Source of the DNA: a virus
DNA length: 64,000 nucleotides
IMG/VR virus record: IMGVR_UViG_3300042893_001103
Location: 1 to 64,000 of that record
Direction: 5' to 3' (one strand)
Notes under the pieces: model-generated
The model's input: only the letters and a program-made list of their open reading frames with translations
Database searches by the model: none
Told to the model about the DNA's origin: nothing
Part shown: positions 30,333 to 58,338 of the stretch, piece by piece
Position numbering within the stretch: position 1 is the stretch's first letter
Layout: each line of letters starts with the position of its first letter
Made by a program: the position numbers and the translations under genes

Positions 30333-30393
30333 GGTTTTCTTTCTATAAGGCAATTGCACACTAGGCATGTTTTATGCGCTACGGTGTGAGCAT

Positions 30394-32784: not shown

Positions 32785-35700
32785 ATGAGTCAGCAAGATA
32801 TTCAATTTAAAGCCATTCCAGGCCAATTCAACATTGACGAGGCCCAAGGCGTCGTTGAGTGTTTCGTCGCCGGCATCGGCAATAAGGACTCAGTAGGAGA
32901 CGTTCTAATTACTGGAGCATTCACCAAAAGCCTTACCCGCCGCAAGCCCCGTGTTGTTTGGGGACACAACTGGAACGACCCAATCGGTAAAGTTCTTGAG
33001 ATTTACGAAGTTGCCCCAGGGGACAGAAGACTTCCAACAAAGATGCTCAACGCCGGTATTGGTGGCTTGTACGCAAAGGTTCAATTCAATCTCAACTCAG
33101 AAAAAGGTCGGGAAGCCTTCGCCAACGTCGCGTTCTTCGGACAAGAACAAGAGTGGTCAATCGGATACAAAACGCTTGATTCAATTTTTGACCCGAACAT
33201 CCAAGCAAACATTCTAAAAGAAGTTGAACTTTACGAAGTATCGCCAGTACTACATGGTGCCAATCAATTGACTGGAACAATTTCTGTAAAGTCTGACGAA
33301 ACAGCCGAAAAGCACATGCCCGGAATGATGATGCCTCACCATACTGGAATGAACCAAGGTCCAAAAATTATCGTCGTTAGACAGGGTGATGATGACGACG
33401 ATGACGACGACAAACCAATTTTCTCAGAGGGTCTTGCTCGGGCGCTTGGTGACAATGAAAAAGAAAGATTGACACGCGAACTACAAAGCAGAAGCGGTTC
33501 CTCAATTCAACTAGTTTCCGCTACTGAAAGCACGGCAAAGTTCAGAAGAATGACCTCTGATGGTCGTTCTGTAATGTACAGAATCGGATATCACACTCCA
33601 GACAATTACGTTACCTTTATGTTTGGCAAGCCTGAACTGGCAGACGGACAACAACCGAGTGGTTCACGTACGGTTGTTCCGTCACAGATGCCTTCAATGC
33701 CAATGCAGGTCAAGCCTGGCGTGCCAACTGGCGCAACGAACTTCGTTGTTAGTCCTGAATACGTAATGCCTAAAGGTGAGGATTATGAAAAATCAGCCTT
33801 TGACGAAGAACTAGAAAATCTTGCTCAGATTCTTGACGAGACATTTGATGTAAAAGTTGGAAGAACGCTTAGTTCCCGCAATATGTCAAAACTAAAAACA
33901 GTCCTAGAGACACTTCAAGACATTGTTTCATCAGCGGAAAAAGATGTTGAATCAAAAAGTGATTACCTAATTCCTGTCAAACTGGAAAACGCGTTTGAGA
34001 CCAAGCAATTACTTGACCCAATTTTTGATTATCACAGGGTTGAATCTCACGTGACGGAAGATGGCATTGTCATCACAACCGAAGTAACACAAGAATTTAT
34101 AGAGGCTATTGGCGTAGCCGAAAAAGCCCTGGGGCGAACGCTAAGCGGGGGCCTGGGAAAATTAGGCCGCGCCGGTAGGGGCGCGGTAAACTTTGACCCA
34201 AAAGCATGGGACGGTGACGGAGACGGAATCGTACAAGAAGGAACGCCGTACTCACGTCCTGCAATTCCTGGAGTAAACGACCGTGCATCTGGTGGAAGAG
34301 TTGACACCAATGCTGCAACCCGCGCATGGCAAAATCAACGCAGAAGCGGAATGGCTTCCCGTATGGGTAGCGATGACAACGCAGATGAATACGACGAAGC
34401 AATGGGACCACCAATGCGACGCCCAAGCAGAGGTATGGCTGACGACCCAGTTGGTGACGCTGCTTCAGAAAACCTTGATAGAGACAGAAACGCTGGCGCT
34501 GTAAGAAGTGGACTTAGTTCAAGCACTGCAGGTGTTGTCAAAATTGATATTCCTCAAATTGACAATGCCATAGAAGAATTGGCAGCCAAAGACATAGGAA
34601 TGTCTCTTAAAAGATTCAGAGAACTAACAGACGAGGGTCGTCTTCCGGAACGTTATCAAAAAGCATTTTCGGACAGAGTTAAAGTTCTTAATGATATTTT
34701 TTCTAATTTAAGCAAAGAAAAACTAGACGAAAGTCCTGGAAAAGTGCTTTCAGAAATTAGAAAAAAATTAGTTGACACTCTTTCTTCTGACGACAAAGAA
34801 GGCGACGGTTTCATTAGCCAATTTAACGATAGAAGAGAAATACAAAACTTTATAGACGGAATTGAAGAAGTTCTTAACTTGGCTTTTGACGACTATGTTG
34901 ACAGGGCTAGAGAAAATGGAACAGGCGAAGAAGCGGACGACCTTCAGGCCGAGTTGTTGTCTGACTTCACACAATCTTTAAAAAAAATATCCGAAAAATC
35001 AAAGAACCTTTTTGATGCAAGAACAAAATCCTTCCGTGGAACAGAACCAGCAAAAGCCAAAAAGGAATCAGAATCAGAAAAAGAAAGATTATTTGACTTG
35101 CTCAAAAATCTTCTTGACATGGAAGAACTTGCTAGGTACCTAGACAGCACAGAGGGCGTTGTTCCTACGGATGCATTTATTGACAGAATCAGAAAGGGAA
35201 ACATAAGTGACGAAGACCTAGTACAACTAAATGGCTTTTTTGAAGATGCACTAGAAAATATTATTACCCTTGACCCAAGCCTTGACCCAGAAAAATTAGC
35301 AAAAGAATTTTCTGATGCAATTAGAGAAGGTGCAAAAAATGATGAATCAGGAGTAATTCAGCGTATTGCAAAAGAACTGGGTGACGATGGCGTCAGTGAG
35401 GACCTCGTTCAATACCTCAAGGATGGTAGAGAAGGTTCTCCATTCCTTCCGAATAGAGGTAAAAAGGAAAGAGAAATACTTCGCGGCTTTGCTTCCAGAA
35501 CCGGCGGTGGTGACTCAAAAGGTAAAAAATTTGATGTTAGGGATAGAAAACAAAGAGAAGACAAAATCGTTGAAATGTACAACGACGGTGAAACTGTTGG
35601 CGACATATCTCGCTTTTTAAGTTCCCAGCCTGGTTCAAATGGTATTTTTACGGAACTTGCTAACATTCGCAATGTTATAGATAAAAGAAGAAAAGCGGGA

Positions 35701-38700
35701 GACGTTCCTCTTCGTTCCGTCAATCCAAACAAGGAAAGACAAGCAACAACTAACCTACGTAATGAAATCATTAGACTTTATAACGATAATGATGAATTGT
35801 CGTATCGTGAAATAGCAAAACTTACTGGTACAACCCAAGCCAATGTTACAAACACCCTTTCTTCAATGCGTAGAGGAAATGATTCTCGCATTAGAAGCGG
35901 GGACAAAGTAAGAGGCTTTTCGTCTTCTACCGGTAGTGATGGAGAGAGTGGACTTGGTTCCTCATCTGACAAGCGCGAAATGGACATGACGCTTGCTGAA
36001 TATGCAGAACTAAATGAAGTTCTTAAAAAATATATGGATGAAAGCCAACTAGACGGCATCGGTGCCGACGAAGACATGCAAGTCATCCAGAACATTCTGG
36101 ACAAACTTGATGAGAGTTCAGCCGCAAACGACTCAATCCCTCTTACGGATAAAGAAATTGACGACTACATGGACACTCTCACAAGAATGAGAGACAATGG
36201 TCCGGTTGAAGATTCAGACGATAAAGAATCAATAGATAAATTGATTGACTCTTTGAAGAAAACAAAAGACTCAAAAGATGGAACCTACGAATCAGATGCT
36301 CTTCAGCAGGCTGGAACCAGGCTTTCCCGTCCTTCTCGTGATGGACAAGGTGGCGGTCGTGGAAGAACAGCAAAACGCCCTCGCGGCTTTAAGAGTTCCA
36401 ATGGAACAATAAACCCACACAAAAAACTTGATATAGAACTAGATGATTCTGAAATCGGCGAACTTCGTGACGAACTTCAGGGTTTTATGAAAATGACAGA
36501 CAACCCTGCTCCGCTCAGGGCCATTGCTGAAAAACTTGAAAAAGCCACAAACGGCAAATTTTCAGTTGATAAAGACGAATACGAAGCAGTCATAAAAGAA
36601 ATAGACAAAATGCGAACCGACAGAGGAGTGGTCACGTCTGATGTGGTTGGGGTTCTTGAGCAAGCAGCAGAATCTCAAAAAGGAAAATACTCCAGTATTG
36701 ATGTTCGTGGTGGACGAGGCTTTGAATCATCTACTGGTGGTGGCAAAAACAACGGAGCACCATCCGACATTCCTGAGACAATGCAAAAGCAACTCATCAT
36801 GTGGGGTAGACAGCAGGGCGGACTCAGACTTGTCCAAGAAGCAATTCAGAGGTTTGACAAAGACAAGGGAACAATGCCGGCGTCGTACTGGAAGAGATTG
36901 CGCACCATGTATGAAAACATGGGGCCAGGTTCCGCTAGTGGTGCTGCTCGCAGAACTGGACGTAGGGGCATATTCGGTCGCGGAAAAGATACAGACACTT
37001 CACCACGTGGTAGTGCTGGATTTATAATTGACGACAGACCAGTACCTAAAGGCTTGCTTGATAACACAATGTCAAACAACCCGATTGTTACAGATGACTT
37101 CGTAGACACCAATTCTGGCCCCATGGGTGGCTCACAGGGTGGCGGCGTATTCAAGGACCCCAAGACTGGTAAGGAATATTACATCAAGCCGCCAAAGTCA
37201 CAAACTCATGCAGAAAACGAATCACTAATGTCTCGTTTCTATGAAAGATTAGGTATTCCTGCTGGAAAAGTAAAAGTAGGAACCTACAAAGGTCGTCCAA
37301 AAATTGTTAGCGAAATGGTTCCAGGGGCAAAACAGGTTGACCATGAATCCGAAATAAAGAACTCAGCATGGAAGAAGGCAGTTCAAGACACTTTTGTGGC
37401 TAATGCATGGCTTGCAAACTGGGACGCTGTTTCAAACTCGGGAAACACCATTAAGGGCGGAGACGGTAAAGCGTACGTCATTGATGTTGGTGGTGCTGGT
37501 CTTTTCCGAGCAAGAGGAGAAGCAAAGGGCTCGGCGTTCGGTCCTATCGTCGGGGAAATGGAATCCTTGAGAGACCCAAATCAGTCGGGCGCTAGACGTG
37601 GTGTTGCATACTGGGGAGACATTCCTCCAGCAGAAATTGCTCGTCAGGTAAAAGCAATTGGAGCAGTATCAGATTCTGAAATCAAAGAAATGGTTGATGC
37701 TGTAATTTCCGACAAAGGTGAAGCAAAGAAACTTTCTGACACCCTTATTGCGCGACGTGACTATCTGGTACAAAACTGGTCCACTGGCAAAAATAGTGGA
37801 ACTGGCAGAAGAGGTCGTACTGGCTTTTCTTCGGAAACCGATAATTACGAAAGAAGAAACAAGAGGCCTGGCGTAGCGCCAGCAATGAGACCTGCCGACT
37901 TTGAAGTACGTCCTCGTGACGGCGAGCCTACGGGTGTTGGCAAGGGTGGAGTAATGGGAACAAAGCCCGACCCCAAGTTCACTGGAGACTCTTTTGACCA
38001 AGCCAAACCAGAAGAATGGGAAAAACTTACAATTGATGAAAAATGGGGTTGGATGCTTGGGGAAGGAAACCCTGAAAAGGGTGGAACGATGTCCCCTGCC
38101 GCCTATCAGGGTGCAATGAGGAAACTTGGCGAAGAAGAAGCCAGGGAAGAAACAAAGCGCATGACTCCAGAAGAACGAAGAAAATCCCGTTCAGAATCAA
38201 GACAAAGCGCCATGGATGAACGTTCTGACAACGAGAAAGAAAGACTCACTTCCGAAAGAGAAGAGCGTCAAAAAGAAGCACAAGAATCATCTAAGCGAGT
38301 TAAGGAAGAAGCAACTGCGGAGCAAGCGAAAGCCAAGAGACAGGCGCGTCTTGATGCTTTCAATGAATGGATTGATGACTCAATTCGTGAACTTTCAGGA
38401 ATGGAATACGACGAAACAGACATCAATCCTGATTCTGAAGACATCTGGGACACTGTTTCCACAATCCTTGGCGTTGAAGACATCACTCCAAAGTCGCTAA
38501 AAGAAGCAATTGACGAACTTTCATCATATATTGACATTACTTCAGGAGAAAATGCTTACGAAAAGAAGAGTGTCGCTCGTGCTAACGCACTATTGAAGAA
38601 ACTCTTAAAGATGCAATCAGAGTATTCGGAAGACAAGTGGTTTAACGACAGAGAGGGTGGAGTGTCTGGATTCCAGTCTTCAACTGGCGACAAACCTCGC

Positions 38701-39309
38701 CCTCCAAGAGACGGTAGACCGGCACGTCCTGGAACACCAGAAACGCCTCAATCAAATGCCAAACGCGAAGGGGAAATTAAAAAACTATCTACGCTGATTG
38801 AGCAGGTTGTTGCAGAACTTGATGAAAAACGTCAAAACCCTTCACCAAAAAAGGGAAGAATGGGATTCTCCTCATCAACCGGCAAAACGATGATTACTGA
38901 CGAAGCAACCTTTTTTAAGGACATTGAGAATTCTCTTGCAAAAGAGATTAGAGCCGCGCAAAAGGCTAGAAACACTAAAGCAGCATCAGGATTAACAAAA
39001 CTTCAAGAGATTATAAAAAGAAGTGAAGCCTCAAAAACAGGCGACAGAAGAACAAACGTCGGAAGTATCTACATGACGATGGATGAAGTTGACTTAATTC
39101 TTGACGGTCTTCAATTTGCCCTTGACCAACAGGTACAGGCTGGTGGAGATAAAAGAATTGGCTGGTACTCAAGACTAATTGAAAAAGTTGCCGGCGCAGC
39201 CATGTCTACATTTATTGATAAAAGTACATCAGAAATTGGTTCAACAAGAAGAACAGTCACAAACAAAGACGGCGTGAAGAAAAAAATCAATATTGTCCCA
39301 GAAGCATAA
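32785..39309 (+). CDS. Giant modular protein: HK97-type prohead protease followed by HTH, helical repeat modules and a HipA/PI-kinase-like domain
   Basis: N-terminal DSVGDVLITGAF, WGHNW..PIG, EWSIGY, LYEVSPVLHGAN; kinase-like GGSQGGG..YYIK..AENE..NWD..GN..VIDVGG; AGGAG RBS. Confidence 0.85.
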   Translation: MSQQDIQFKAIPGQFNIDEAQGVVECFVAGIGNKDSVGDVLITGAFTKSLTRRKPRVVWGHNWNDPIGKVLEIYEVAPGDRRLPTKMLNAGIGGLYAKVQFNLNSEKGREAFANVAFFGQEQEWSIGYKTLDSIFDPNIQANILKEVELYEVSPVLHGANQLTGTISVKSDETAEKHMPGMMMPHHTGMNQGPKIIVVRQGDDDDDDDDKPIFSEGLARALGDNEKERLTRELQSRSGSSIQLVSATESTAKFRRMTSDGRSVMYRIGYHTPDNYVTFMFGKPELADGQQPSGSRTVVPSQMPSMPMQVKPGVPTGATNFVVSPEYVMPKGEDYEKSAFDEELENLAQILDETFDVKVGRTLSSRNMSKLKTVLETLQDIVSSAEKDVESKSDYLIPVKLENAFETKQLLDPIFDYHRVESHVTEDGIVITTEVTQEFIEAIGVAEKALGRTLSGGLGKLGRAGRGAVNFDPKAWDGDGDGIVQEGTPYSRPAIPGVNDRASGGRVDTNAATRAWQNQRRSGMASRMGSDDNADEYDEAMGPPMRRPSRGMADDPVGDAASENLDRDRNAGAVRSGLSSSTAGVVKIDIPQIDNAIEELAAKDIGMSLKRFRELTDEGRLPERYQKAFSDRVKVLNDIFSNLSKEKLDESPGKVLSEIRKKLVDTLSSDDKEGDGFISQFNDRREIQNFIDGIEEVLNLAFDDYVDRARENGTGEEADDLQAELLSDFTQSLKKISEKSKNLFDARTKSFRGTEPAKAKKESESEKERLFDLLKNLLDMEELARYLDSTEGVVPTDAFIDRIRKGNISDEDLVQLNGFFEDALENIITLDPSLDPEKLAKEFSDAIREGAKNDESGVIQRIAKELGDDGVSEDLVQYLKDGREGSPFLPNRGKKEREILRGFASRTGGGDSKGKKFDVRDRKQREDKIVEMYNDGETVGDISRFLSSQPGSNGIFTELANIRNVIDKRRKAGDVPLRSVNPNKERQATTNLRNEIIRLYNDNDELSYREIAKLTGTTQANVTNTLSSMRRGNDSRIRSGDKVRGFSSSTGSDGESGLGSSSDKREMDMTLAEYAELNEVLKKYMDESQLDGIGADEDMQVIQNILDKLDESSAANDSIPLTDKEIDDYMDTLTRMRDNGPVEDSDDKESIDKLIDSLKKTKDSKDGTYESDALQQAGTRLSRPSRDGQGGGRGRTAKRPRGFKSSNGTINPHKKLDIELDDSEIGELRDELQGFMKMTDNPAPLRAIAEKLEKATNGKFSVDKDEYEAVIKEIDKMRTDRGVVTSDVVGVLEQAAESQKGKYSSIDVRGGRGFESSTGGGKNNGAPSDIPETMQKQLIMWGRQQGGLRLVQEAIQRFDKDKGTMPASYWKRLRTMYENMGPGSASGAARRTGRRGIFGRGKDTDTSPRGSAGFIIDDRPVPKGLLDNTMSNNPIVTDDFVDTNSGPMGGSQGGGVFKDPKTGKEYYIKPPKSQTHAENESLMSRFYERLGIPAGKVKVGTYKGRPKIVSEMVPGAKQVDHESEIKNSAWKKAVQDTFVANAWLANWDAVSNSGNTIKGGDGKAYVIDVGGAGLFRARGEAKGSAFGPIVGEMESLRDPNQSGARRGVAYWGDIPPAEIARQVKAIGAVSDSEIKEMVDAVISDKGEAKKLSDTLIARRDYLVQNWSTGKNSGTGRRGRTGFSSETDNYERRNKRPGVAPAMRPADFEVRPRDGEPTGVGKGGVMGTKPDPKFTGDSFDQAKPEEWEKLTIDEKWGWMLGEGNPEKGGTMSPAAYQGAMRKLGEEEAREETKRMTPEERRKSRSESRQSAMDERSDNEKERLTSEREERQKEAQESSKRVKEEATAEQAKAKRQARLDAFNEWIDDSIRELSGMEYDETDINPDSEDIWDTVSTILGVEDITPKSLKEAIDELSSYIDITSGENAYEKKSVARANALLKKLLKMQSEYSEDKWFNDREGGVSGFQSSTGDKPRPPRDGRPARPGTPETPQSNAKREGEIKKLSTLIEQVVAELDEKRQNPSPKKGRMGFSSSTGKTMITDEATFFKDIENSLAKEIRAAQKARNTKAASGLTKLQEIIKRSEASKTGDRRTNVGSIYMTMDEVDLILDGLQFALDQQVQAGGDKRIGWYSRLIEKVAGAAMSTFIDKSTSEIGSTRRTVTNKDGVKKKINIVPEA

Positions 39310-39418
39310 ATAGTATGCGTTCTCGCTCAGAGGCGCATGCTAAGTTATACTTTTATAAACTATTCATAATGTGATATTGACACTCGTGTCTTTACTCGCT
39401 AAAAAACAGGAGTTACCA

Positions 39419-40795
39419 ATGAGCGAAAAAGTTGAAGTCAGTGTTGATGCGGACGGCAATGTTCTTAAGTGTGCCAAGGGCGCAAATGTTGCCGACTGCG
39501 GGTTTACCCCAGGTGCAAAAGTGTGCGGTAAGTGCGGAGCAATGCCTATCCAGATGAAGATGGTTCCAGTCACCGATGATGACTATGAAGTCAAGGGTGG
39601 AGACAAATGGGACGATAGTGAAATGTTTGACGCTATGAAAAAGCGTCAAAAGGGCACGGGCATGGGAATGCCTGGCGAAGAAGATGATGACGAAGAGATG
39701 GATGACGAAGACGAGATGGCGTCAATGCCGTCATCCAAGAAGAAAATGTCTCTTGAAATTGAAGAAGACGACGAAGAAGAATACGACGAAGACGACGAAG
39801 AAGAAGACGACGAAGACGCCGAGATGAAAATGTACGACGGAGAAGTTGACCTAGAAGCAGCAAGAAAGAAACGTCTTGCCAACATGGGTGAAAAAGTCGC
39901 AGAACTTGGAAGAAACGCATACATGTGTGCTGTTGAAAGAAAAGTTTACCCAGGTGGTTCAGGCGTCTGTGACGATTGTCCTGGTGGATGCTTGCCAGAG
40001 CGCGGAATGCCAGGTCTTCTTTCTGTTGAAGGAATTGCCGAAGAAATGTTTAAGGGCAAGGTTCTTGACTCTGGATATTCTTCAGATGCAGACATGTTCG
40101 TGGTTGACATTCAATCAAAGAGCGGCCGTGCGGTTGAAGTCTTTATTGATGGTACAACTGCAGAAGTTCTCGGTTTCCACAAACTTGATGACAATGCCTT
40201 TGAGCAGAAGTCAGCACTTGATTCAATGATGGTAATTGACTTCCACGAAGCAGCAGAGATTGCAGTTAAGTCCATTCAGGGTGACGTTGTTGCTGTTGAG
40301 CCAGACATCTTTGAAGGCTTTGATGCATACGCAGTTGAAATTGAAGGAATTGACGGAAAGTCTTACGACGTATTCGTTTCACTTGACGGTGAAGTTCTTG
40401 GATACGACAAGTATGAGCCAGAAGAAGCAGAAGCCATTGAAGCAGAAGCCGCAGAGATTGCATTAAAGCGTGCATTCAATGAAGACATGCGCACACAAAT
40501 GGCAGAAGAAGGAAAAGCACTTCCAGACGGTTCCTTTCCTATTTCTAACGTAGAAGACCTCAAGAACGCAATCAGCGCATACGGTCGTGCAAAAGACAAA
40601 GAAGCAGCAAAGAATCACATTATGAAGCAAGCCAAGGCTATGGGTCAGGAAAAACTTATCCCCGCCAACTGGGTAACCGGTGGAGCAAAACTTGTTGAAG
40701 AAAAATCCGGAGAAGTTGACTCTGACCTTATGGCATCGCTTGTTGAGTTTGAACTCCTTGAGGCCGAGGTCAAAGACTCAGAACCAACAATCTAG
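39419..40795 (+). CDS. Head-associated protein with Cys clusters, acidic tract, two PepSY-like domains and a DUF6582-like domain
   Basis: IDFHEAAEIAVKSIQGDVVAVE...YAVEIEG..GKSYDVFVSLDGEVLG; ALPDGSFPI..VEDLKNAISAYGRAK; AGGAG before ATG 39419. Confidence 0.65.
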   Translation: MSEKVEVSVDADGNVLKCAKGANVADCGFTPGAKVCGKCGAMPIQMKMVPVTDDDYEVKGGDKWDDSEMFDAMKKRQKGTGMGMPGEEDDDEEMDDEDEMASMPSSKKKMSLEIEEDDEEEYDEDDEEEDDEDAEMKMYDGEVDLEAARKKRLANMGEKVAELGRNAYMCAVERKVYPGGSGVCDDCPGGCLPERGMPGLLSVEGIAEEMFKGKVLDSGYSSDADMFVVDIQSKSGRAVEVFIDGTTAEVLGFHKLDDNAFEQKSALDSMMVIDFHEAAEIAVKSIQGDVVAVEPDIFEGFDAYAVEIEGIDGKSYDVFVSLDGEVLGYDKYEPEEAEAIEAEAAEIALKRAFNEDMRTQMAEEGKALPDGSFPISNVEDLKNAISAYGRAKDKEAAKNHIMKQAKAMGQEKLIPANWVTGGAKLVEEKSGEVDSDLMASLVEFELLEAEVKDSEPTI

Positions 40796-40811
40796 AGAAA
40801 GCGTGGCCCGT

Positions 40812-46475: not shown

Positions 46476-46882
46476 AAGCGGTATTGGTAGGGACCGTTTT
46501 TGGAGACAAAAAACTGTTTTATGTAATTGATGCAAAAGACGAAAAAACCGATGGAATACTTGATGATGGCGTCAAACCAAAGGTTGTTAATTTTTGGGCA
46601 ACCGCTATGAATGCCAGAAATCTAGTACCATTACGTTCAACGAAGTTTCATGATTTTTTATGGGATGGAGCGTCTTGGGATAATAGCGATGAATGGGAAA
46701 GGGTTTTCATAAGAAAAACTCAGGTTGTTTCCCCAAGAATGTCTTCTGGTGTTGTTTTTTCCTCAGATGCAATGAAATCAAAAGCAAAAGAAAAATCAAT
46801 CAATCATCGTGCTACAGAATTTAAAACACTGATGCAGACGCAAAACATAAATATAGTACGCTCCAGAACGGGTAAACAATGA
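46472..46882 (+). CDS. Hypothetical protein
   Basis: 136 aa, ATGA-coupled to both neighbours. Confidence 0.7.
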   Translation: MKAVLVGTVFGDKKLFYVIDAKDEKTDGILDDGVKPKVVNFWATAMNARNLVPLRSTKFHDFLWDGASWDNSDEWERVFIRKTQVVSPRMSSGVVFSSDAMKSKAKEKSINHRATEFKTLMQTQNINIVRSRTGKQ

Positions 46883-47478
46883 ACAGCAGAGACATTAAGG
46901 CAGACCCCCTTGGTGGGATAATCCCGCAGGAACTGGTTACTGGAGACCTACTCAAAGGTCGCGGACCAAGAAGAGGAAATCTTGAGCGCCTTCTTCGCTA
47001 TTGGCGGCCAATCATGAAAAAACCAGGCGGCTTTAGGCGTTGCAAAGTCATCCTTGCCGACCATCCAGAGTTGTACCCGTTGAACAATATCTGTGCTTGG
47101 TTGCATCACGAAACTACTGGTCTTTGGCCAAACGAGGGATGTCATCACCCTGGCATGAAAAACTGCCGCAAGAAAATTAAAAAAGGAATAAACGGTACTC
47201 TTTTCTCTGACTCTCAATTTGATAACAGAGTAAGGAAACTTGCTGGAAATAGCAAGAAATCTTTACAACAAGAAACCGAACGATACGAAGACTCGGTAGT
47301 AACTAATGCCGACGAAAAACACTCAGTCTTGGTGATGCGTGACTTTTCTGAGATGGAACCAGATTTCTGTAAAACCATGTCCGACGATTCAAGTTGGGAA
47401 ATAGAAGGCGAAGACGAAATGGGGAATACCAAGTCCGTTCCCTACGATTCTGAACAGGATGACGACGTTGAGCAATAG
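46879..47478 (+). CDS. Head-associated protein with Cys/His motif
   Basis: LLRYW..PGGFRRC...CAWLHHETTGLWP motif resembles modules in actinophage head-maturation proteins. Confidence 0.6.
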   Translation: MNSRDIKADPLGGIIPQELVTGDLLKGRGPRRGNLERLLRYWRPIMKKPGGFRRCKVILADHPELYPLNNICAWLHHETTGLWPNEGCHHPGMKNCRKKIKKGINGTLFSDSQFDNRVRKLAGNSKKSLQQETERYEDSVVTNADEKHSVLVMRDFSEMEPDFCKTMSDDSSWEIEGEDEMGNTKSVPYDSEQDDDVEQ

Positions 47479-49465
47479 AGAAATAAATTTCGTCAAAAGA
47501 AGAATTACTCTTCTTTCCGTAAAAACGGTTCGTAAGGTAAATCCCGTAATAACCATGCGCTTAAACGGCCAACAAAACGTAATAGATTACAAGGCTTTAG
47601 CAAAGCGCTCCGGTCTGACACGCAAGTACAGTGTGAAGGTCGGAATACTTGGTACGCATTCTACAATTGGTCAAGGAGCGCAGGCCATCGGTTCGGCAGC
47701 CATTCCGGGCAACCTGAGCCCTCTACGAAGCCCTATCAGGTCTGGTGCGTGGGGTGCCCTAACTCCCGGAAAACCAAGAATCCCTGGCGGTACTGGTGGA
47801 GCAAATCGTGCTAGTCGTTGCCCAGAGGGGTATCAATACGGCGGTCGTTTTACCGACTCGCGTTTTTCCACATGTGGCGCAAAACTGTTTGACATACCTT
47901 CTGCTATTGGTGTGGCAATCGGAGCACTAAGAAGAATAGCCCGTGGCGCTAGAGCAATTGCAGGACAGTCAACCCCAATCACTGGCGAGACTCCACAAGA
48001 TTCAATAGTTGATTCAAGACGTCCCCAGATTCCGAGAGTCGGAAACCCCAACCCAGTAGCACGCGCGGCTGCAGCAAAAAACATTGTCTCTCAAATCGGG
48101 CAGTCTGATGCGGCTGTCGTAAGAATGGTCAGAAAAGACGGGTTTGCGTTAGAACCAGTAGTTCCAGCACAGGTACTAAGAGCGATTCCAGACAACAGAG
48201 ACATGGAAGGCGCTGATTACATATTGTCAGTTCAGGGCCTTCCTCAACTAGGCGGAGAAGAACTTGGACTCCTCTCAAATACTGGGGTAACAAAACTTAC
48301 GTACGTTCTTCCAGGAGGCTCAACGCTGTCCCTTGAAAAGAAGAGACAACTAACTGTTGGTGAAAGAAGAAAACTTGGACGCACGGTTAATGCTGCGTCA
48401 AAAATTGACATTACCAATGACCCAACTGCACGATTAAAAGAAGTGGTTGCTCAAACTGGTGACGGAATAGGTTATTCAGAAAATTTCATAAATGTAAAAA
48501 ACCCCAATGAAGTTGTTTCCGCAGGTGGGAAATCACTCCCACGATGGGCTGATGAATTGTTTGGTAAGGGCAGAAAAGCGAAGCCACTAGCCAATGCAGA
48601 AAGAGCAACAGACTCAAATAGCGCCGTAGGAAAAAACATAACAAGCGTTGACGCTGCAGTTGACCAAATAATGTCTGGAAGACCACTTTCGGAAATTGAC
48701 CCAATGATTTTACAGCAAGCACTTACAAAGGCAAACGTATTCAAGAGACAAAAATTGGACCAAAGAAGAGAATTGCTTGAAACGCCTAATGGCAATAAGT
48801 ACATGCTCTATTCCTCGTCTGGAAAATATGAGCACCTTGGTCAAAAACTTGCAAGCGATATCCAGCAGCATCTTGGTCTTGAGTCGCCAGACGTTTTCTT
48901 TGTCGGTGAAGGAGATAAGAGAAAATACATAGTTGAGGATGCCTCTTCTCTAATTAGAGGATTTCAGGTTGACCGCAGGCGCAAATTCTCTGACTACAAA
49001 CCAGAAGATGTGGCAAAAATGCTTGTATCCGACTGGCTCACAGACCAGAGAGACAGAGACCCTGGTTCTATAGTTCCAGTTTCAAATGGAACAGACACGA
49101 AACCGGTTGTTACCAATAACTTCACTTCCGGACTTGCGGACCTTGATGAAGTGTCAATTGTTGAGCGTCAAAAACTGACCTTCTCTCAATTCATGGATGT
49201 AAAAAGAACTGAAACATACTCACAGTATTTTCAAAACCTGCAGCAACAGCAAAGATTTGCCTTCAGAAGAGAGATTGACGCTCTACTATTAAGAGCAAGA
49301 CAATTTAACTTTACACAATTCAAAAATCGCCTTTACAGTGATGGTCGCTTAACTGATGCTGAAAAAGCCCACCTAAATATTATTGGGCGTATTTTAGAAA
49401 CAAGAATTCAAAACTACGCAGGTAGTAGGGAAAATTTAATGGAAATCCTCGGAGTCAAAAAATGA
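47459..49465 (+). CDS. Polyvalent protein with degenerate JAB-like and HipA-like pseudokinase domains
   Basis: RCPEGYQYGGRFT; KLASDIQQHLGLESP; DWLTDQRDRDPGSI. Confidence 0.6.
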   Translation: MTTLSNREINFVKRRITLLSVKTVRKVNPVITMRLNGQQNVIDYKALAKRSGLTRKYSVKVGILGTHSTIGQGAQAIGSAAIPGNLSPLRSPIRSGAWGALTPGKPRIPGGTGGANRASRCPEGYQYGGRFTDSRFSTCGAKLFDIPSAIGVAIGALRRIARGARAIAGQSTPITGETPQDSIVDSRRPQIPRVGNPNPVARAAAAKNIVSQIGQSDAAVVRMVRKDGFALEPVVPAQVLRAIPDNRDMEGADYILSVQGLPQLGGEELGLLSNTGVTKLTYVLPGGSTLSLEKKRQLTVGERRKLGRTVNAASKIDITNDPTARLKEVVAQTGDGIGYSENFINVKNPNEVVSAGGKSLPRWADELFGKGRKAKPLANAERATDSNSAVGKNITSVDAAVDQIMSGRPLSEIDPMILQQALTKANVFKRQKLDQRRELLETPNGNKYMLYSSSGKYEHLGQKLASDIQQHLGLESPDVFFVGEGDKRKYIVEDASSLIRGFQVDRRRKFSDYKPEDVAKMLVSDWLTDQRDRDPGSIVPVSNGTDTKPVVTNNFTSGLADLDEVSIVERQKLTFSQFMDVKRTETYSQYFQNLQQQQRFAFRREIDALLLRARQFNFTQFKNRLYSDGRLTDAEKAHLNIIGRILETRIQNYAGSRENLMEILGVKK

Positions 49466-52400
49466 AAAAAGTATCTACCCTATTTGATGCGTTGCGTAAT
49501 GAAAAGTTTGCTATTGCTGTTCAGGACGACTATGGAGTTAAATACTACGGCTCTGAAGGTCAAGCAAGAGAATGGGCGGACTGGGCAAACTCTTTTAATA
49601 CCAAGACACTTGACACAAATAATCTTCCAGCAGGAATTATTCAGGGTCCATATAAAAACGTTAGTGAGCATTCTCTCAAGTCCTTACTGAATGCTTTTGG
49701 TAACAACGTTACGGAAATTAACAACTCTTTCACCGACTCTAAGGCGTACTCATATAAAAGTTCCATGAAGATGGATAATGGCGCTCGCGTTCCAGCAGTA
49801 ATGGACACACCAATTGGGCACTTTACTAAATCCCAATACGCAAGCGCAGTAAATTACAAAGGTCTAGTTATTCGTACTCAAATCAAAGAAGGAAGTTTTC
49901 TTTTTGAGGCAAAAGTAAATAATTATGCATTTAACTTTGAAAACTGGATGTACAACTCAACTCCTTCAAAAGCGGAGATTAAATCCCTTCGCAACAGAAT
50001 TGATACAAACGTAGGTCGTTCTTCGGAAAGACGTTTAGGAATGAAACTGAAGGCCGCCCTCGTTGAAAGAGACGGACGCTACAGAATTGGGTATGCACAA
50101 ACCCTAGAAACCAAGTCGCTTGAAGATTCTCTTGAGGTAAAAGGAATTGGCGAAAGAATAGGCGGAGGAGCACGCATCGGAAGAAGAGCGGCTCGTAGTA
50201 TGGCCATGTTTGACCCAAAGGCTTGGGACGGCGATGGTGACGGCGTAGTTCAAGAAGGTACTCCTTTTGAGAGACCAGCAATTCCTGGAGTCAACGACAA
50301 AACAACTGGTGGAGTTGTTGATGCAGATGCTGCAAAAAAGGCATGGAAAGAATCTCAGAAGACTCCAGGCAGTTCAACGCCTTCAAGAGAGTCAAGCCCT
50401 AGACGCAGGGTTTCCAACGCAGCAGGCTCAGCAGATAGACAAGTTTTTACTACTCGCACGCCAGCCGCAGCAGGTCGCAAAATACCTGACTCAAAGCCGA
50501 TAAGTAGAAGCGGTCTAGCGTCACGAACACAGGCTGATATTGATAAAGAAGTATCAAAGCAAGTCACAGACACGGCAAAAGAAGTTCTTACCAAGAAATC
50601 AACGTCCACCGATTTACGTTCACTGATTAGTGGCCTCGGTCCTGACGGAGCAACAGAACTAAGCAGAGACCAGCAAGACAGAATTAACGACATTATTGAT
50701 GCGTTTGATAATGACGAATATGAAAATAATGAAGATTTTATTTCGGAAATTGCAAATGTTTTGCAAAAAAAGATTCCCGTAAATCAAAAACCAAAACAAA
50801 CAGGCATGCGTTCACGTGTTGGTAAAGCACAAATGGATAGACAGGTTCAGGGTCTTGCGTCACGTAGTGGTCGTTCAAAAACAAAATCAAAACTTAAAGC
50901 AACACCAGGCCGTGATGCTGTTGACGAAAAAGATGGTTCCCTTTGGGCTTCACTTACTCCGGAACAACAGGATGTTGTAAAGAAAAACACACAAGCAGCG
51001 TACGACGGACTTCAGACATACATCAAGAAAGATAAATACCTAAGCACGTGGTGGAATGACTTTTTGAGTCTTAATCGCAAAAAGAAAGCAACTGACGCAG
51101 ACGGAAAACCCTGGTCCGACCAGTCAAGAATTTCTGGAGAAGCATTTACTTCTTTTGAAGTTGCGTTAAACGGTGCTCTTTCTGGTGAAAATTCAGACAT
51201 AGCGTCTGCAGAGTCTGGTCTTGCAGCAATGAGGGCCACTCTGTCCGATGCTGAAATCAAAAAAGCAGAAAATAGAATTGCAGCACAGAAAAAAAGAGTT
51301 GAAAGACTTCAAAAAGTCTTAGACGACCTTAGAACTTATGACCAAATGGATAAATCTGACGACTGGTCGCTTCTTGAGCACCTTCACCCAGAACAAAGAA
51401 AAAAGTCTTTTGGTCTTGGACTTAGCAAGAGTGAAGCCGACATGACGGTAAGTCCTTTTGCTGATGGAAAACTTCCAAAGGGAATGAAGGTTGGGGAGCC
51501 ATCAACCATCTTTGAAGAAGTTGGTGGAATGAAGAGAGCCGCTCCACGACTCATCGGAGAAAAAGGTGACGCAAAACTTGAAGACCTTGCAAACAGAATT
51601 CTTCGCCCGAATCCGCAAAGAGCAGCACGTCGCGCTGTTAGAAAACAGAAAAAGGCTGGTCGTTCAGGTTTCAGAATTGAACAAGAAGACAAACCTGATA
51701 TTACAAGCAAGATTAAAAAAAGAATTAAAAAAGCCAAACGAGCAGTCAAAAGAACCTTTGGAAAACAAAGAAACGAATCAAAAATTCTTAACGGAATCAG
51801 AAGAGAACAAACTGTTAGAATTTTTGAAAGAGACCCAGATGGAAAAATTGTTATTGGAAAAGAAACAATTCAACTACTTGACGAAGTCGTTAATAAGGCA
51901 CGCCAGAATAACGGTCGTGGAGAATTCAAGGGTCAAGCAGACGCAAACATGCTCCTTGGTTTCTTGTGGGAAAACAATGGCTTCAACAGACAGCCAGCCC
52001 GCTTATCGGAAGATGAAGCAATGGCTTTGATTGATGCTGGATGGCACCCAATCAAGAGAGGCGTTTCTGCTGAAGAATATGCGGATGAATATTTAACAGA
52101 ATCTCGCAGAAGAATTACTGGTTCCAACGGAGAAATGGAAGGACCTGGAGAATACTGGTCAAATGCTGTTTCAACAAACTGGGATGACCCAAGATATTGG
52201 GGTAAACCGACCGAAAGCAATGGATTGTTTGGATTTCTAAGTCCTGATTATAGGGTTGCTTCAAGAGTTGATAGAGAACGTATGGCTTCGGAATATCAAA
52301 AGTTTGCACAAGCATTTGAAAATGTAATTTCTGTAATGCCCAAAGGCGAAGCAGAAAAAATGGAACCCGCAGATTTCATGAGAGAACTACGTACCGCTCT

Positions 52401-52749
52401 TTCAAGGAACGTTGCAGACGGCGACCCAGTATGGGATGGCGAAGTTGGACAAATGTGGTCTTCGTTGATGAGTGCTTACGAATCATCCAGTGGACCAGAA
52501 AAAACACAACTATGGAATGTAATTAATTTTATGTCTACTCAACTTACAAGACAAACAAGATGGGAAAACTATGTTCCTTTAATTTTAGGCTACGATGGCA
52601 TTGATACCGGAGACAACACAGTAAGAACTGGTGGAACGGCCGCTGGAAAACAAGTCCTTATTTTCAATAGACAGGGCCTTGCTGTTCTTGACACGCCAAT
52701 AAGCATTAAGGGAATTAATGACATTCTTAAGGAAGCAGATAAAAAATGA
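49462..52749 (+). CDS. Polyvalent protein with C-terminal ADP-ribosyltransferase-like domain
   Basis: FDPKAWDGDGDG motif; NGFNRQP...IKRG...GEMEGPGEYW...LGYDGID...VLIFNR. Confidence 0.6.
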   Translation: MKKVSTLFDALRNEKFAIAVQDDYGVKYYGSEGQAREWADWANSFNTKTLDTNNLPAGIIQGPYKNVSEHSLKSLLNAFGNNVTEINNSFTDSKAYSYKSSMKMDNGARVPAVMDTPIGHFTKSQYASAVNYKGLVIRTQIKEGSFLFEAKVNNYAFNFENWMYNSTPSKAEIKSLRNRIDTNVGRSSERRLGMKLKAALVERDGRYRIGYAQTLETKSLEDSLEVKGIGERIGGGARIGRRAARSMAMFDPKAWDGDGDGVVQEGTPFERPAIPGVNDKTTGGVVDADAAKKAWKESQKTPGSSTPSRESSPRRRVSNAAGSADRQVFTTRTPAAAGRKIPDSKPISRSGLASRTQADIDKEVSKQVTDTAKEVLTKKSTSTDLRSLISGLGPDGATELSRDQQDRINDIIDAFDNDEYENNEDFISEIANVLQKKIPVNQKPKQTGMRSRVGKAQMDRQVQGLASRSGRSKTKSKLKATPGRDAVDEKDGSLWASLTPEQQDVVKKNTQAAYDGLQTYIKKDKYLSTWWNDFLSLNRKKKATDADGKPWSDQSRISGEAFTSFEVALNGALSGENSDIASAESGLAAMRATLSDAEIKKAENRIAAQKKRVERLQKVLDDLRTYDQMDKSDDWSLLEHLHPEQRKKSFGLGLSKSEADMTVSPFADGKLPKGMKVGEPSTIFEEVGGMKRAAPRLIGEKGDAKLEDLANRILRPNPQRAARRAVRKQKKAGRSGFRIEQEDKPDITSKIKKRIKKAKRAVKRTFGKQRNESKILNGIRREQTVRIFERDPDGKIVIGKETIQLLDEVVNKARQNNGRGEFKGQADANMLLGFLWENNGFNRQPARLSEDEAMALIDAGWHPIKRGVSAEEYADEYLTESRRRITGSNGEMEGPGEYWSNAVSTNWDDPRYWGKPTESNGLFGFLSPDYRVASRVDRERMASEYQKFAQAFENVISVMPKGEAEKMEPADFMRELRTALSRNVADGDPVWDGEVGQMWSSLMSAYESSSGPEKTQLWNVINFMSTQLTRQTRWENYVPLILGYDGIDTGDNTVRTGGTAAGKQVLIFNRQGLAVLDTPISIKGINDILKEADKK

Positions 52750-53075
52750 GTGACAAAGATACGTTTCATGAAAAACACTTGGAGTATTCAAAACTAACAA
52801 AATACCCTCCCTTTACAATTAGTTTGAAAAAGGCTCGCGAATTTGGGAATGACTTTTTAAAAGAAGAAGACAGGATTTTTTCTGAAGTTGATTCCGGTAA
52901 CGAAGATGCATGGGCTCGCGCATTTTCAACAATGGAAGTAAAATGGGATGACGATATTGAGGAAGCACGTCTTTACCAAAAACGATACGGTGACAATATT
53001 CTTGAGGCAAGAAAAGCAGCAATGAAATTAAACAACCTAACCGAAGACGACAAAGACGTTCCTCTGTTTATTTAA
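52746..53075 (+). CDS. Hypothetical protein (candidate immunity/partner)
   Basis: 109 aa, charged, ATGA-coupled to the ART-like gene. Confidence 0.6.
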   Translation: MSDKDTFHEKHLEYSKLTKYPPFTISLKKAREFGNDFLKEEDRIFSEVDSGNEDAWARAFSTMEVKWDDDIEEARLYQKRYGDNILEARKAAMKLNNLTEDDKDVPLFI

Positions 53076-53077
53076 TT

Positions 53078-55453
53078 ATGGAAGATTCGCTTGTTGGTAA
53101 AATTGCTGCCGTTAGGCAAGCAGCGGACATGGGCTGCTTCGGCGCGCATCAAATTTCAAATGGCGATTGGCTTCCATGCTCATCAACTAAACAGTTTTTG
53201 ACAATTATGAACGGATTTGATGTCAAGTCAAGAATTTCTCTTGACGAGATGGAGAACTGGTCTTCAATAAGAAAGTCAAAAGGCAAAAAACGCAAGAAGC
53301 GTTGGGAAAAACTTCGCGAGAGAAGAATTCTAGGAATTGAATCACTTGACAACGGTGGTCTTGTTTCTCCAAGAAATTCAATGAATATGGTTAATGGTGG
53401 CACTAACCCCCCAATAACTTATGGTGCTTCAAATCCTTCAAGCATGTCTACGAAGAGCATTCAGCCAGCATTCATGCCCAGAGACAATGACCCTGACGTA
53501 TTTGTGGACATTGAATCAGCAAGAAAAAGAGCACAACAACTTGGATGCATCGGTATAAGTAGAAGAATGTCAAAAGGCGGCAAAACCGTATGGATGCCAT
53601 GTACCAACATTACCGACTACAACAATTTGACAGGAATGACTGCTCTTGGAAGAAATAATCTTCAGAAAAGAAATGAAAAAATAGTCAGAACCGTTATAAA
53701 AGAAAATCTTAAAAAGAAAAAAACAACGATTCAAGAAGATATATACGGCAAGGCTCTTGGCCCAAGAATACGAGGCATAGCCCGTGCGGCAATGTCTAGA
53801 TTTGACCCTGATGCTTTTGACGGAGACGAAGATGGAATTATCCAGGACGGAACAGCGTTTGAAAGACCCAACACTCCGAATGCTCGCATCCCCAAGACTG
53901 TAGATAGGGAAGTTTCTCCCTCCGAAGTTTCGGCAGTACGCAAGTGGATGAGTGCCATGACTTCTTCAGATATGGATTCCTTCCGAGGCGAACCGATTGA
54001 AGCATACGATGGTGTTCCTGGTTCAAGACGTGGCTTGGCATCTAGTGGGCCCGGTTTCATTATTGACCCCAAGGGTCCAAAACAAATGGGCGGAAGAATG
54101 GCACCAAAGCCATTGGCCATAACAGAACTAAGAAACCCAGAAGCCAGTCCGACCAATCCGTTTAGAAATCTTGGTGGAAGATTGATGAGCAAATTGATTA
54201 GAGGAATGGTAAAGCCCGAACACAGACGTAAGCAAGAGAGAACAACCTATCTAATTGGAGGCAATACTGGTTCCGGAAAAACCACCGTACTTGACGAACA
54301 CTTAATACCAAAAGGATTGGTTCCTTCACACGAAGAGGCTGCCCTTATTGACCCAGACTTTATTAAGAAAGGTCTTGTTGGATATGACGATGGACAAGGC
54401 GCTGGTCGTGTTCACAGAGAGTCTCAAGCATCAACCGACAAGACAATCAGGGATGCCGTTTTGGACGAACTGGACATGGTAATTACGGGTTCTGGGGCAT
54501 CAAGACAAATCCAACACATGCGTGAAGCGTCTGAGCGTGGTGAAAAAGTAGTGGGCCACTGGGTTCATGTTCCGCAACGAGAAGCATCTAGACGCATTAA
54601 GAAGAGAGTGGATGAGACCAACAGGTATATACCTGACAACACCGCCCACATGGCACAAAGCATTCCTAAGGTTATTTCAACAGGCTTTGAAGAAGACTTA
54701 CTAGACGAGTTCTATTTATGGGACAACGATGTTCCAGCAGGTTCACCACCAAAACTAATTGCAAAAAAATCCAAAGGAAAAGATTTTGAGATATTTGACC
54801 AGTCAAAATTTGAAGAATTTGCTGGAAGTAAAAAATGGGCAGACACGTGGGTGGAAACGTCAGAAGACAGAGACGTGTCAAGAAAAGGTTTTGAGTCCTC
54901 AAGTTACACAGGCAAAGAAGCCGCAGTTGCTTTAAGAGAGTCTGGTTTTGAAGTAATCATTGACAAAAATATAGAAGTTCGTCTTCCTGCAGGAAGTGAT
55001 GCAGAAAAATTCTTTATAGAACGAGTTCTACCATATATGCCAAACAAATTTGGAAGAACGAACACACACGCGTCACGACTTACCCTGCCAGGGATTCCAA
55101 TTGTTGAAGACGTACAAAAGTTGCTCGGGGTGAGTATTGATAAAAGAAAAATTGTTGACAAAAACTATCGTAAAAAATTTAAAATGCAACTCATGTCAAA
55201 CGACCTAGAAGTTTTAGCAGAACTTTTTGCTAAAGCCCCTATTGTTGGTCCAAACGGCGAATCAAGGTTTGGCGATATGTTGCTTACTAACGTTGGTGTT
55301 GAGTTTGATGAAACAGTAAAGCAAATTGCTAAAAAGGCTGGTTTTTTGGAAAAAGAAATTTCAATGTTGATAAGTGAAGGGTTCACGAAAGAAGATATTG
55401 AGAAAATGTCAAAAGAAGAAATACAAGAACTACTAGACGCGCTTCCGGAATGA
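53078..55453 (+). CDS. Polyvalent protein: two DUF3721-like Cys motifs plus a zeta-toxin-like P-loop kinase
   Basis: A..MGCFGAH..WLPC and A..LGCIG..WMPC; GGNTGSGKTT, IDPDFIK, VHRES, RIKKRVDETNRYIP, LWDND. Confidence 0.75.
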   Translation: MEDSLVGKIAAVRQAADMGCFGAHQISNGDWLPCSSTKQFLTIMNGFDVKSRISLDEMENWSSIRKSKGKKRKKRWEKLRERRILGIESLDNGGLVSPRNSMNMVNGGTNPPITYGASNPSSMSTKSIQPAFMPRDNDPDVFVDIESARKRAQQLGCIGISRRMSKGGKTVWMPCTNITDYNNLTGMTALGRNNLQKRNEKIVRTVIKENLKKKKTTIQEDIYGKALGPRIRGIARAAMSRFDPDAFDGDEDGIIQDGTAFERPNTPNARIPKTVDREVSPSEVSAVRKWMSAMTSSDMDSFRGEPIEAYDGVPGSRRGLASSGPGFIIDPKGPKQMGGRMAPKPLAITELRNPEASPTNPFRNLGGRLMSKLIRGMVKPEHRRKQERTTYLIGGNTGSGKTTVLDEHLIPKGLVPSHEEAALIDPDFIKKGLVGYDDGQGAGRVHRESQASTDKTIRDAVLDELDMVITGSGASRQIQHMREASERGEKVVGHWVHVPQREASRRIKKRVDETNRYIPDNTAHMAQSIPKVISTGFEEDLLDEFYLWDNDVPAGSPPKLIAKKSKGKDFEIFDQSKFEEFAGSKKWADTWVETSEDRDVSRKGFESSSYTGKEAAVALRESGFEVIIDKNIEVRLPAGSDAEKFFIERVLPYMPNKFGRTNTHASRLTLPGIPIVEDVQKLLGVSIDKRKIVDKNYRKKFKMQLMSNDLEVLAELFAKAPIVGPNGESRFGDMLLTNVGVEFDETVKQIAKKAGFLEKEISMLISEGFTKEDIEKMSKEEIQELLDALPE

Positions 55454-58075: not shown

Positions 58076-58338
58076 TACTCAAGCCAGGAACAGACCCAGA
58101 AGAAGCCGCAAAACTGAGGGCTTCAATGAATAAAATTCATCAGCAGATTGATGACTTCTTAACACTCAAAGACACTATTGAGTCAGACAATCCTGCAAAG
58201 GATGCGTGGAAAGCGGTATATGGGTGGGACAATCCAGCGCTTGACGAGAACACAAAAGAAGGCAAAGCGTTGAAAGCCAGAATAGCAAGAATGTTCGGTA
58301 AAGATATTGATACTCAAGAAAAAGACGAGAAAAACTAA
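58072..58338 (+). CDS. Hypothetical protein
   Basis: 88 aa, coupled on both sides. Confidence 0.6.
   Translation: MILKPGTDPEEAAKLRASMNKIHQQIDDFLTLKDTIESDNPAKDAWKAVYGWDNPALDENTKEGKALKARIARMFGKDIDTQEKDEKN

Follow-up and report, generated by a model that had tools for sequence, protein, structure and literature searches.

The window analysed in this work is a stretch of 64,000 nucleotides (nt), positions 1 to 64,000 of IMG/VR record IMGVR_UViG_3300042893_001103, a 72-kb record of an uncultured phage with a CheckV completeness estimate of 48%. On its plus strand, to which all coordinates refer unless stated otherwise, a head module runs from a portal gene (30622-32676; PF04860) through a 2174-amino-acid (aa) open reading frame (ORF; 32785-39309) and further ORFs of 474, 1931, 199, 668, 1095, and 791 aa to the capsid gene (55593-56954). 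The 2174-aa ORF encodes a polyprotein led by an S78 (HK97-type) prohead protease and carries ten copies of a short motif, G-[FLM]-x-S-[SRET], which is the subject of this report. The motif is strongly enriched, sits in the linkers between modules, and recurs throughout the extensive clade to which the system belongs. The members of this clade are uncultured phages whose genomes measure roughly 130-160 kb, and each genome has its own version, or flavour, of the motif. From the sequence evidence, we estimate a probability of roughly 55% that the motif is the maturation cleavage site of the S78 protease fused at the polyprotein N-terminus.

The protease-led polyprotein and its recurring motif

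The S78 domain of the 2174-aa ORF covers aa 23-169 (32851-33291; PF04586 at 44.4 bits against a cut-off of 21; phrog_80, head maturation protease, E = 1.9e-27). Its H61 and S125, invariant in 25 relatives, align with H65 and S114 of HK97 gp4, which we take to be the catalytic His and Ser. The gene is placed between the portal and the HK97-fold capsid gene, with about 16 kb of other large ORFs intervening before the latter. Directly past the protease domain stands a run of eight Asp residues at aa 202-209 (33388-33411), followed by a conserved region of about 300 aa of no known family; the proteases of Gordonia phages carry an acidic, scaffold-like tail where this ORF has the Asp run. All forms of the polyprotein share a conserved N-terminal unit of about 500 aa that is free of motif copies (the protease plus the second region), a variable and shuffled middle, and, at the C-terminus, a conserved module of about 145 aa. 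This last module (38878-39309) gave no family match, is found in nearly all relatives including short forms of 1000-1200 aa, and could serve as a capsid anchor.

An initial annotation had described 16 matches to the motif in four large ORFs, and all 16 were recovered in frame at the same positions: ten in the 2174-aa, one in the 1931-aa, three in the 1095-aa, and two in the 791-aa ORF. Within the 2174-aa ORF, the first copy, GMASR at aa 522 (34348-34362), stands at the end of the conserved N-terminal unit. It is followed by GLSSS at aa 576 (34510-34524), GFASR at aa 901 (35485-35499), GFSSS at aa 1044 (35914-35928), GLGSS at aa 1056 (35950-35964), GFKSS at aa 1201 (36385-36399), GFESS at aa 1312 (36718-36732), GFSSE at aa 1680 (37822-37836), GFQSS at aa 1962 (38668-38682), and GFSSS at aa 2027 (38863-38877), the last being a family-wide site just before the conserved C-terminal module. 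The 1931-aa ORF (40680-46475), which has no Pfam or PHROG match, carries GFSST at aa 1158 (44151-44165) in the context SSGFSSTTG and a candidate extra copy outside the annotated pattern, KKR-GLQSA-GK, at aa 111 (41010-41024). Three copies begin at nt 50512, 50803, and 50851 of the 1095-aa ORF (49462-52749), and these sites are kept in relatives with a changed flavour. The 791-aa ORF (53078-55453), with a DUF3721 and a zeta-toxin P-loop domain, has copies at nt 54032 and 54887 that flank the zeta domain. On the minus strand, a 1573-aa tape-measure- or tail-lysin-like ORF (12546-17267), which has membrane-like hydrophobic stretches and weakly matches the tail-associated lysins of phrog_1047, carries GFASS followed by the Gly-rich run TGGG at aa 42 (17130-17144). 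The motif is, in all, common to four head-module ORFs and one tape-measure-like ORF of the window.

Enrichment was estimated with composition-matched shuffles (5,000 for the 2174-aa ORF). The ten copies of the 2174-aa ORF compare with 0.57 expected, a count reached in none of the 5,000 shuffles, and the 1095-aa and 791-aa ORFs were also enriched (3 against 0.23, p = 0.0026; 2 against 0.19, p = 0.014). The count in the 1931-aa ORF was not significant (1 against 0.46), and the context of its copy fits the extended consensus given below. The remaining 32 listed ORFs together held 8 matches against 3.1 expected. The pattern had been defined post hoc; an unbiased search, which looked for whichever 4-of-5-residue pattern is most over-represented, nevertheless put GF.SS first in the 2174-aa ORF. 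The claim that the codons differ between copies held: three codons are used for Gly, the Ser codons are of the TCN as well as the AGY type, and pairs of 15-nt cores are on average 55% identical. Copies said to be usually preceded by Arg have it at position -1 in 5 of 16 cases, and somewhere within -3 to -1 in 11; TG, said to follow often, comes next in 6 of 16, and any residue and then Gly in 10.

The motif in relatives and database homologues

With the protease domain as query, at least 598 viral contigs matched, and with the capsid as query 438 relatives were found; 80 of each set were fetched. ORFs read onward from the protease in the 80 fetched loci reach more than 3500 aa. Among the relatives, 56 such ORFs have 1000 aa or more, and in 33 of these the unbiased top pattern belonged to the motif family; of the other 23, 16 (mostly short forms of 1000-1285 aa) had no pattern of at least four copies and seven had unrelated patterns. 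In a database search, 324 homologues (1195-3805 aa) were obtained, every one metagenomic and annotated at most as 'HK97 family phage prohead protease', and the best 120 were analysed. In these 120, G[FLM].S[SRGT] was observed 785 times against 59.6 expected (13-fold), with at least four copies in 83 homologues and none in five, and the unbiased top pattern, by reading of the pattern strings, was of the motif family in 92, absent in 24, and unrelated in four. Copies in the same set are spaced at a median of 186 aa (interquartile range 80-299); the median position of the first copy is aa 538, and the last copy has a median distance to the C-terminus of 150 aa. The extended consensus reads (R/K)(R)(R/G)-G-[LFM]-[ARS]-S-[RS]-[ST]-G; over 779 copies in the homologues, Arg was enriched 3-3.8x at -3 to -1, while Ser/Thr made up 55% of residues at +6 and Gly 37% at +7. 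Some relatives (L090, L099, and several database homologues, e.g., P0022 and P0037) have pentapeptide-repeat stretches (PF00805; top pattern ANLTGA-like) in their polyproteins.

The flavour of the motif is specific to the genome (e.g., GF.SS, GLAS, GFAS(R), RGMASR, GMRSR, DGFASRG, GLSSG, KLSSG, and PLGSRS), and single flavours reach high copy numbers, with 15 exact copies of GMRS, 20 of G.RSR in relative L152, 16 of KLSSG, and 20 of PLGSRS in a 3987-aa ORF. In G003, a complete relative of 140,645 bp, two large multidomain ORFs together hold 24 occurrences of LGS[RS] against an expectation of 0.44, and the remaining 139 ORFs with 100 aa or more hold a single one against 1.99. The second of these two ORFs (L173:2525-10606; 2693 aa) combines WYL, RNase T exonuclease, and GNAT domains and holds six copies of the G003 flavour. 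Its place, some 15 kb downstream from the capsid gene, shows that the motif signal is not confined to the head module.

Copies lie in linkers between modules

The residues that flank the copies are poor in hydrophobic amino acids, both in the 2174-aa ORF (0.142 against 0.256, p = 0.0002) and over the 785 homologue copies (0.161 against 0.258). A FoldIndex-type score was also lower at the sites (p = 0.014), with the exception of the copy at aa 576, which directly abuts a hydrophobic stretch. Homology blocks tell of the same placement: 34 of the 72 unique internal BLAST block ends fell within 15 aa of a copy as against 14% for random ends (p < 0.0002; p = 0.002 against randomly placed sites). 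For instance, blocks shared with relatives begin at aa 575-578, at the GLSSS copy, stop at aa 905-912, just past GFASR, and begin again at aa 1051-1058, around GLGSS. In a check for copies inside folded domains, none of the 78 lineage-motif copies in five relatives lay within the best stretch of a Pfam match.

The polyproteins of relatives join the S78 domain to ArdC-N, MPTase-PolyVal, KTSC (4-5 copies), UvrD helicase, and sigma70_r4 domains, and several of these are bracketed by copies. The pair ArdC-N and MPTase-PolyVal occupies aa 3031-3293 between copies at aa 3012 and 3414 in G003, aa 1018-1276 between 997 and 1473 in L133, and aa 1878-2146 between 1871 and 2187 in L154. A complete UvrD helicase, with its N- and C-terminal parts together, lies at aa 2422-2942 between 2302 and 2964 in L154 and at aa 1096-1868 between 1048 and 1903 in L123, and sigma70_r4 of L154 lies at aa 912-951 between 888 and 968. 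In each of the 25 distinct relatives compared, the C-terminal module has the lineage's own version of the motif 5-15 aa ahead of it, even in short forms with one or two copies (e.g., GFSSS, FASTS, GLAST, GLRSS, GMSSRS, GMRSRS, GLRSD, GLASS, RLTSG, TLRSS, and others). By composition, homology-block ends, and domain calls, then, the copies are placed in what appear to be flexible linkers between functional modules. The proteins of these relatives are thus polyvalent proteins as Iyer et al. (2017) use the term, with a head protease in the lead.

The modules of the window itself are thinner, with S78, weak HTH matches, and one conserved domain of no known family. The initial annotation had placed three recognisable modules between copies, and these fared differently. 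The zeta-toxin domain (aa 383-524) of the 791-aa ORF indeed sits between the copies at aa 319 and 604. The supposed HTH pair between the sites at aa 901 and 1044 gave sub-threshold Pfam HTH matches only. For the segment called a kinase-like domain (36718-37822), a conserved domain at about aa 1456-1665 (by tblastn) was found between the sites at aa 1312 and 1680, as described, and its identity as a kinase was not borne out, the module giving no PDB sequence match and no Pfam match at E<=1. The label of ADP-ribosyltransferase, which a homologue of this module bears in one phage record, was likewise not confirmed.

We also compared the window ORFs that follow the polyprotein (474, 1931, 199, 668, 1095, and 791 aa) with the polyproteins of other lineages. 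The comparison gave 122 BLAST alignments at E<=1e-8, and only one of the first 60 spans at least 80 aa. Equating the ends of ORFs with motif sites thus finds no support.

Orthologous sites change flavour together

In the alignment of relatives, orthologous sites persist across genomes and each genome writes them in its own flavour. The site at aa 1312 of the 2174-aa ORF, for example, is GFESS in the window and GFASS, GLAST, or GMASR in relatives, and that at aa 1680, GFSSE in the window, is GFAS, GLESS, or GMSSR. We quantified this with the last site, which agreed with the consensus of the other sites of its own protein at 2.13 of 3 variable positions, as against 0.86 when re-paired at random (n = 107; 0 of 5,000 shuffles reached this value). 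The N-terminal site of the tape-measure-like ORF was present in five of five lineages (GFASS, ALASRS, GLATT, RGFRSA, and GLASR). The uniformity of flavour within a genome is not a product of homogenisation at the DNA level, because the codons differ between copies; and the joint change of flavour at orthologous sites points to a trans-acting reader. A match in the portal, GLIST at nt 31738, was set aside as a chance match, for it belongs to a part of the portal fold that does not vary among 35 distinct portal sequences from lineages of differing flavour.

The site at aa 42 of the tape-measure-like protein may mark a propeptide at its N-terminus. With the prohead protease as reader, such processing of a tail protein would be unexpected.

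A putative maturation cleavage signal and its alternatives

The initial annotation had proposed a polyprotein cleavage or recognition site, and a signal for recognition or cleavage at module boundaries is the explanation that the sequences support best. Its further suggestion, a second protease or a second specificity distinct from Lys-type sites, is not supported. The sequence at the reported capsid cleavage point of HK97 gp5, K103|S104-L-G-S, in which we take K103|S104 to be the exact bond cleaved, fits a pattern of a basic residue, the cut, and then small-Phi-x-S (Phi, hydrophobic). One S78 protease could therefore read both types of site. The delta domain of HK97 is given as 102 residues in a passage of PMC12749128. 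The HK97-fold major capsid protein of the window (PF05065; 38% identity to HK97 gp5) has an N-terminal delta-like (scaffold-like) extension, and its S144|A145 aligns with K103|S104, at the head of A-L-P-S-G (aa 145-149; 56025-56039), which is near-invariant in 80 relatives. The aligned place reads S-G-L-G-T in Gordonia phage Gray and K-S-L-F-T in mycobacteriophage PhancyPhin. Phage D3, considered as a second known capsid site, was uninformative, its protease being annotated as ClpP-like and not S78. The literature searched yielded no consensus cleavage site for the S78 family.

Among possible readers of the motif, the S78 protease is favoured because it is the motif's constant partner and stands at the N-terminus of the ORF with the most copies. 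Part of this constancy is built into the sampling, since the queries with which all relatives were found were the protease and the capsid. If the S78 protease is the reader, the polyprotein would be built into the prohead through its N-terminal unit of about 500 residues, its C-terminal module of about 145 residues, or both; it is the position inside the head gene module that suggests packaging into the virion. The protease would then cut at each linker signal and free the modules as separate proteins, which in relatives would include ArdC-N with MPTase, UvrD helicase, KTSC, and sigma-r4/HTH, and in the window an HTH-like module, the conserved domain of no known family, and a zeta-like P-loop kinase. 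The freed modules could leave with the DNA, and the same signal would remove a short N-terminal propeptide from the tape-measure-like protein. By analogy with the register of HK97, the scissile bond may lie just before the Gly (R/K|G-Phi-x-S), which would put the enriched Arg at P1.

Several observations weigh against cleavage by the S78 protease. The catalytic domain of the protease is almost invariant across lineages while the flavour changes, and in an analysis of mutual information between columns of the protease region and the F/L/M flavour, which is confounded by phylogeny, the top 15 columns all fell within aa 184-530 and none in the catalytic domain. The capsid sequence ALPSG/AMPSG has the loose core only, does not follow the flavour of the lineage, and would match by chance at an estimated rate of roughly 1%. 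Moraxella phage Mcat23, with an S78-like protease, showed no such pattern at the aligned place in a small alignment of major capsid proteins. A candidate further upstream in the capsid, K-GLGAS at aa 92, was rejected as a co-varying cleavage site since it is too inconsistent and follows the flavour in some lineages only (the place reads QLSSRE in phages of the LSSG type and KSVYGS in the closest relative, L001, and has no match in G003). Among the neighbouring large ORFs, several have one copy or none. Finally, one copy belongs to a tape-measure-like tail protein, and a protease that acts only inside the prohead should have no contact with it.

The leading alternative, which we nevertheless consider rather unlikely, is that the motif is a docking peptide that stays uncut, the linker copies binding the inner face of the HK97-fold shell or the delta domain of the capsid and so tethering the cargo during assembly. 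The placement in disordered linkers suits this, as do the catalytic domain without visible co-variation with flavour and the copy that a further large protein carries some 40 residues into its sequence in five of five lineages, which resembles a targeting propeptide. Encapsulin targeting peptides are, according to PMC7925596, short strings of Gly, Ser, hydrophobic, and basic residues in flexible regions that bind an HK97-fold shell, with a composition like G-Phi-x-S-R; these peptides are terminal, however, and their residue order is different. Ten to twenty internal copies exactly at unit boundaries are what a dicing signal predicts and docking does not need, the capsid protein is as conserved as the protease and explains the changes of flavour no better, and the cleavage-point sequence of HK97 resembles the motif. 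The two roles may also coexist in a motif that is both targeting signal and cleavage site, as is described for the T4 capsid-targeting sequence in PMC5694885.

Less probable again is cleavage of the motif by a different protease, such as MPTase-PolyVal, the HExxH stretch of the 1931-aa ORF, or a protease of the host. A metallopeptidase reader is conceivable because relatives carry MPTase-PolyVal inside the polyprotein (PF18818 in G003, L133, and L154), autoprocessing of polyvalent proteins by such domains is predicted in the main text of Iyer et al. 2017 (PMC5512222), and a protease not confined to the prohead would more easily reach the copy in a tail-type protein. Against this, PF18818 was not detected anywhere in the 72-kb record, with its estimated completeness of 48%, nor in the L152 polyprotein, an incomplete ORF, despite its 20 copies, and S78 is the one constant partner (in part by construction, as said) and is fused to the motif-richest protein. 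The 1931-aa ORF does contain an HExxH (HERAH) at aa 615 (nt 42522). The stretch around it gave no match to a peptidase family, Pfam, or PHROG, and may be a divergent metallopeptidase.

The two weakest alternatives can be dealt with briefly. That the motif is a site of post-translational modification, either phosphorylation by the zeta- or kinase-like modules or ADP-ribosylation of a neighbouring Arg, is suggested by the invariant Ser flanked by Arg and by the presence of a zeta-toxin-type P-loop kinase domain and of a domain annotated in one phage record as ADP-ribosyltransferase (an unconfirmed identity), but is very improbable, as these enzyme modules are not constant across the lineages that carry the motif, the Arg positions vary between flavours, KLSSG having none, and the strict boundary placement would go unexplained. 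Scarcely more credit can be given to a functionless linker remnant spread by duplication and shuffling of modules, for although L152 and L155 have duplicated modules with similar flanks and KTSC domains are repeated 4-5 times, the codons differ between copies, orthologous sites in different genomes change flavour together, unrelated proteins carry the motif too (the tape-measure-like ORF and the second polyvalent ORF of G003), and the giant virion-module ORF (3289 aa) of the unrelated lake phage DSL-LC01 has no such repeat.

Neighbouring genes and nearest cultured phages

The portal protein has a C-terminal extension of about 300 aa past the Pfam portal domain, with a collagen-like or Pro-Gly-Met repeat, PGMPGMPGMP (31876-31960, aa ~419-446). 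As listed, the 1931-aa ORF begins at a GTG inside the upstream 474-aa ORF (39371-40795), an overlap of 116 nt, and the true start is probably later than listed because an in-frame ATG lies just past the end of the 474-aa ORF. The zeta-toxin-like protein of 791 aa has DUF3721 repeats at its N-terminus (53105-53185, aa 10-36). Directly 3' of the capsid gene stand a gene for an Asp/Asn beta-hydroxylase (cupin; 57025-57573) and then one for a DUF6321 protein (58338-59342); in some database homologues, according to their Pfam annotation, DUF6321 is fused to the ORF of the S78 protease. The opposite strand holds a Rad52/22-family recombinase (27739-28479, minus) and the large terminase (29025-30368, minus), which diverge from the head module at about nt 30500.

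Judged by the capsid (46-48% identity) and by the protease, the closest phages in culture are actinobacterial, namely phages of Brevibacterium and Gordonia. Their protease gene product measures no more than about 455 aa, has an acidic tail, and lacks the motif.

Comparison with known systems and implications

The closest working analogue is the head maturation system of the phages T4, phiKZ, and Salmonella phage SPN3US. In the accounts given in PMC5694885, the head protease (T4 gp21, phiKZ gp175, or SPN3US gp245 with its AXE motif) reads a short motif in capsid, protease, and internal or ejection proteins, often at several sites per protein, with N-terminal propeptides that act as capsid-targeting sequences and with self-processing of the protease. 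The likeness lies in one short motif common to several head-associated proteins, cleavage having been measured there and being proposed here. The differences are that those proteases are of the T4 gp21 type and that of the window is of the S78/HK97 type, that their motifs end in Glu whereas the window has G-Phi-x-S-[SR], and that they trim propeptides, whereas in the window clade up to 20 or more sites lie in one protease-led polypeptide and would separate whole effector modules. The change of flavour from genome to genome is likewise a feature of the window clade, unlike these phages. With HK97 itself the window shares the protease family, the order of portal, protease, and capsid, and an HK97-fold capsid with an N-terminal scaffold-like extension; gp4 of HK97, however, has 225 aa and no cargo, whereas the window clade has 2000 to about 4000 aa of modules between protease and C-terminal module.

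Embedded peptidases have been predicted to release the domains of polyvalent proteins (Iyer, Burroughs, Anand, de Souza, and Aravind, 2017; main text of PMC5512222), and the likeness to the present system is considerable. Both are multidomain, with ArdC-N, MPTase, helicase, GNAT, and zeta-like conflict domains, both stand among late or virion genes, and in the same text delivery with the DNA is predicted. The definition of that paper, two to fifteen conflict or effector domains in one polypeptide, fits the relatives, and more thinly the window itself. An assemblin-like peptidase, when present, is C-terminal in the proteins described there (main text of PMC5512222), whereas the peptidase here is N-terminal in the window and in all 80 protease-query loci fetched. 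In the main text of PMC5512222 we found no recurring inter-domain motif described, and the word 'linker' is absent there; the literature searched gave no description of the motif or of a protease-led polyprotein architecture. Encapsulin targeting peptides (native PLTVGSLRRGG, consensus DGSLGIGSLKG, as quoted in PMC7925596), which load cargo into an HK97-fold shell, differ in being terminal, in one or two copies, with the order …G-S-L-[KR]-G and without being cleavage sites, whereas the window copies are internal.

Beyond phages, the polyproteins of RNA viruses follow the same logic, with a single translation product that has its own protease and a short junction signal at each boundary that is tuned to that protease. 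The window differs in that it belongs to a dsDNA tailed phage, that the modules are accessory effectors and not replication or capsid machinery, and that the proteases are non-homologous. The analogy between polyvalent proteins and RNA-virus polyproteins is also drawn in the main text of PMC5512222.

Putting these elements together, we tentatively suggest, at a little below even odds, that this widespread clade of uncultured dsDNA tailed phages has a true polyprotein strategy. Up to twenty or more anti-host effector modules would be carried in one protease-led protein of 2000-4000 residues; the prohead would take this protein up, and it would there be cut apart at a junction 'barcode' particular to each genome, which would also mark other virion propeptides. 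Should the motif instead be a docking peptide, it would be the first phage counterpart of the encapsulin targeting peptides. The S78/HK97 proteases are one of the commonest families of phage head proteases. If the motif is a cleavage site, it would to our knowledge be the first consensus cleavage site known for this family, and hundreds of natural substrate sites would be at hand for deriving that consensus. A protease, cargo modules, and an anchor joined by a portable junction signal would, in that case, also be a design for loading foreign proteins into HK97-type capsids. Polyvalent proteins would then be processed by rule at defined junctions, and module boundaries would be predictable from sequence alone, which would help to delimit effector domains (anti-restriction and others) in metagenomes.

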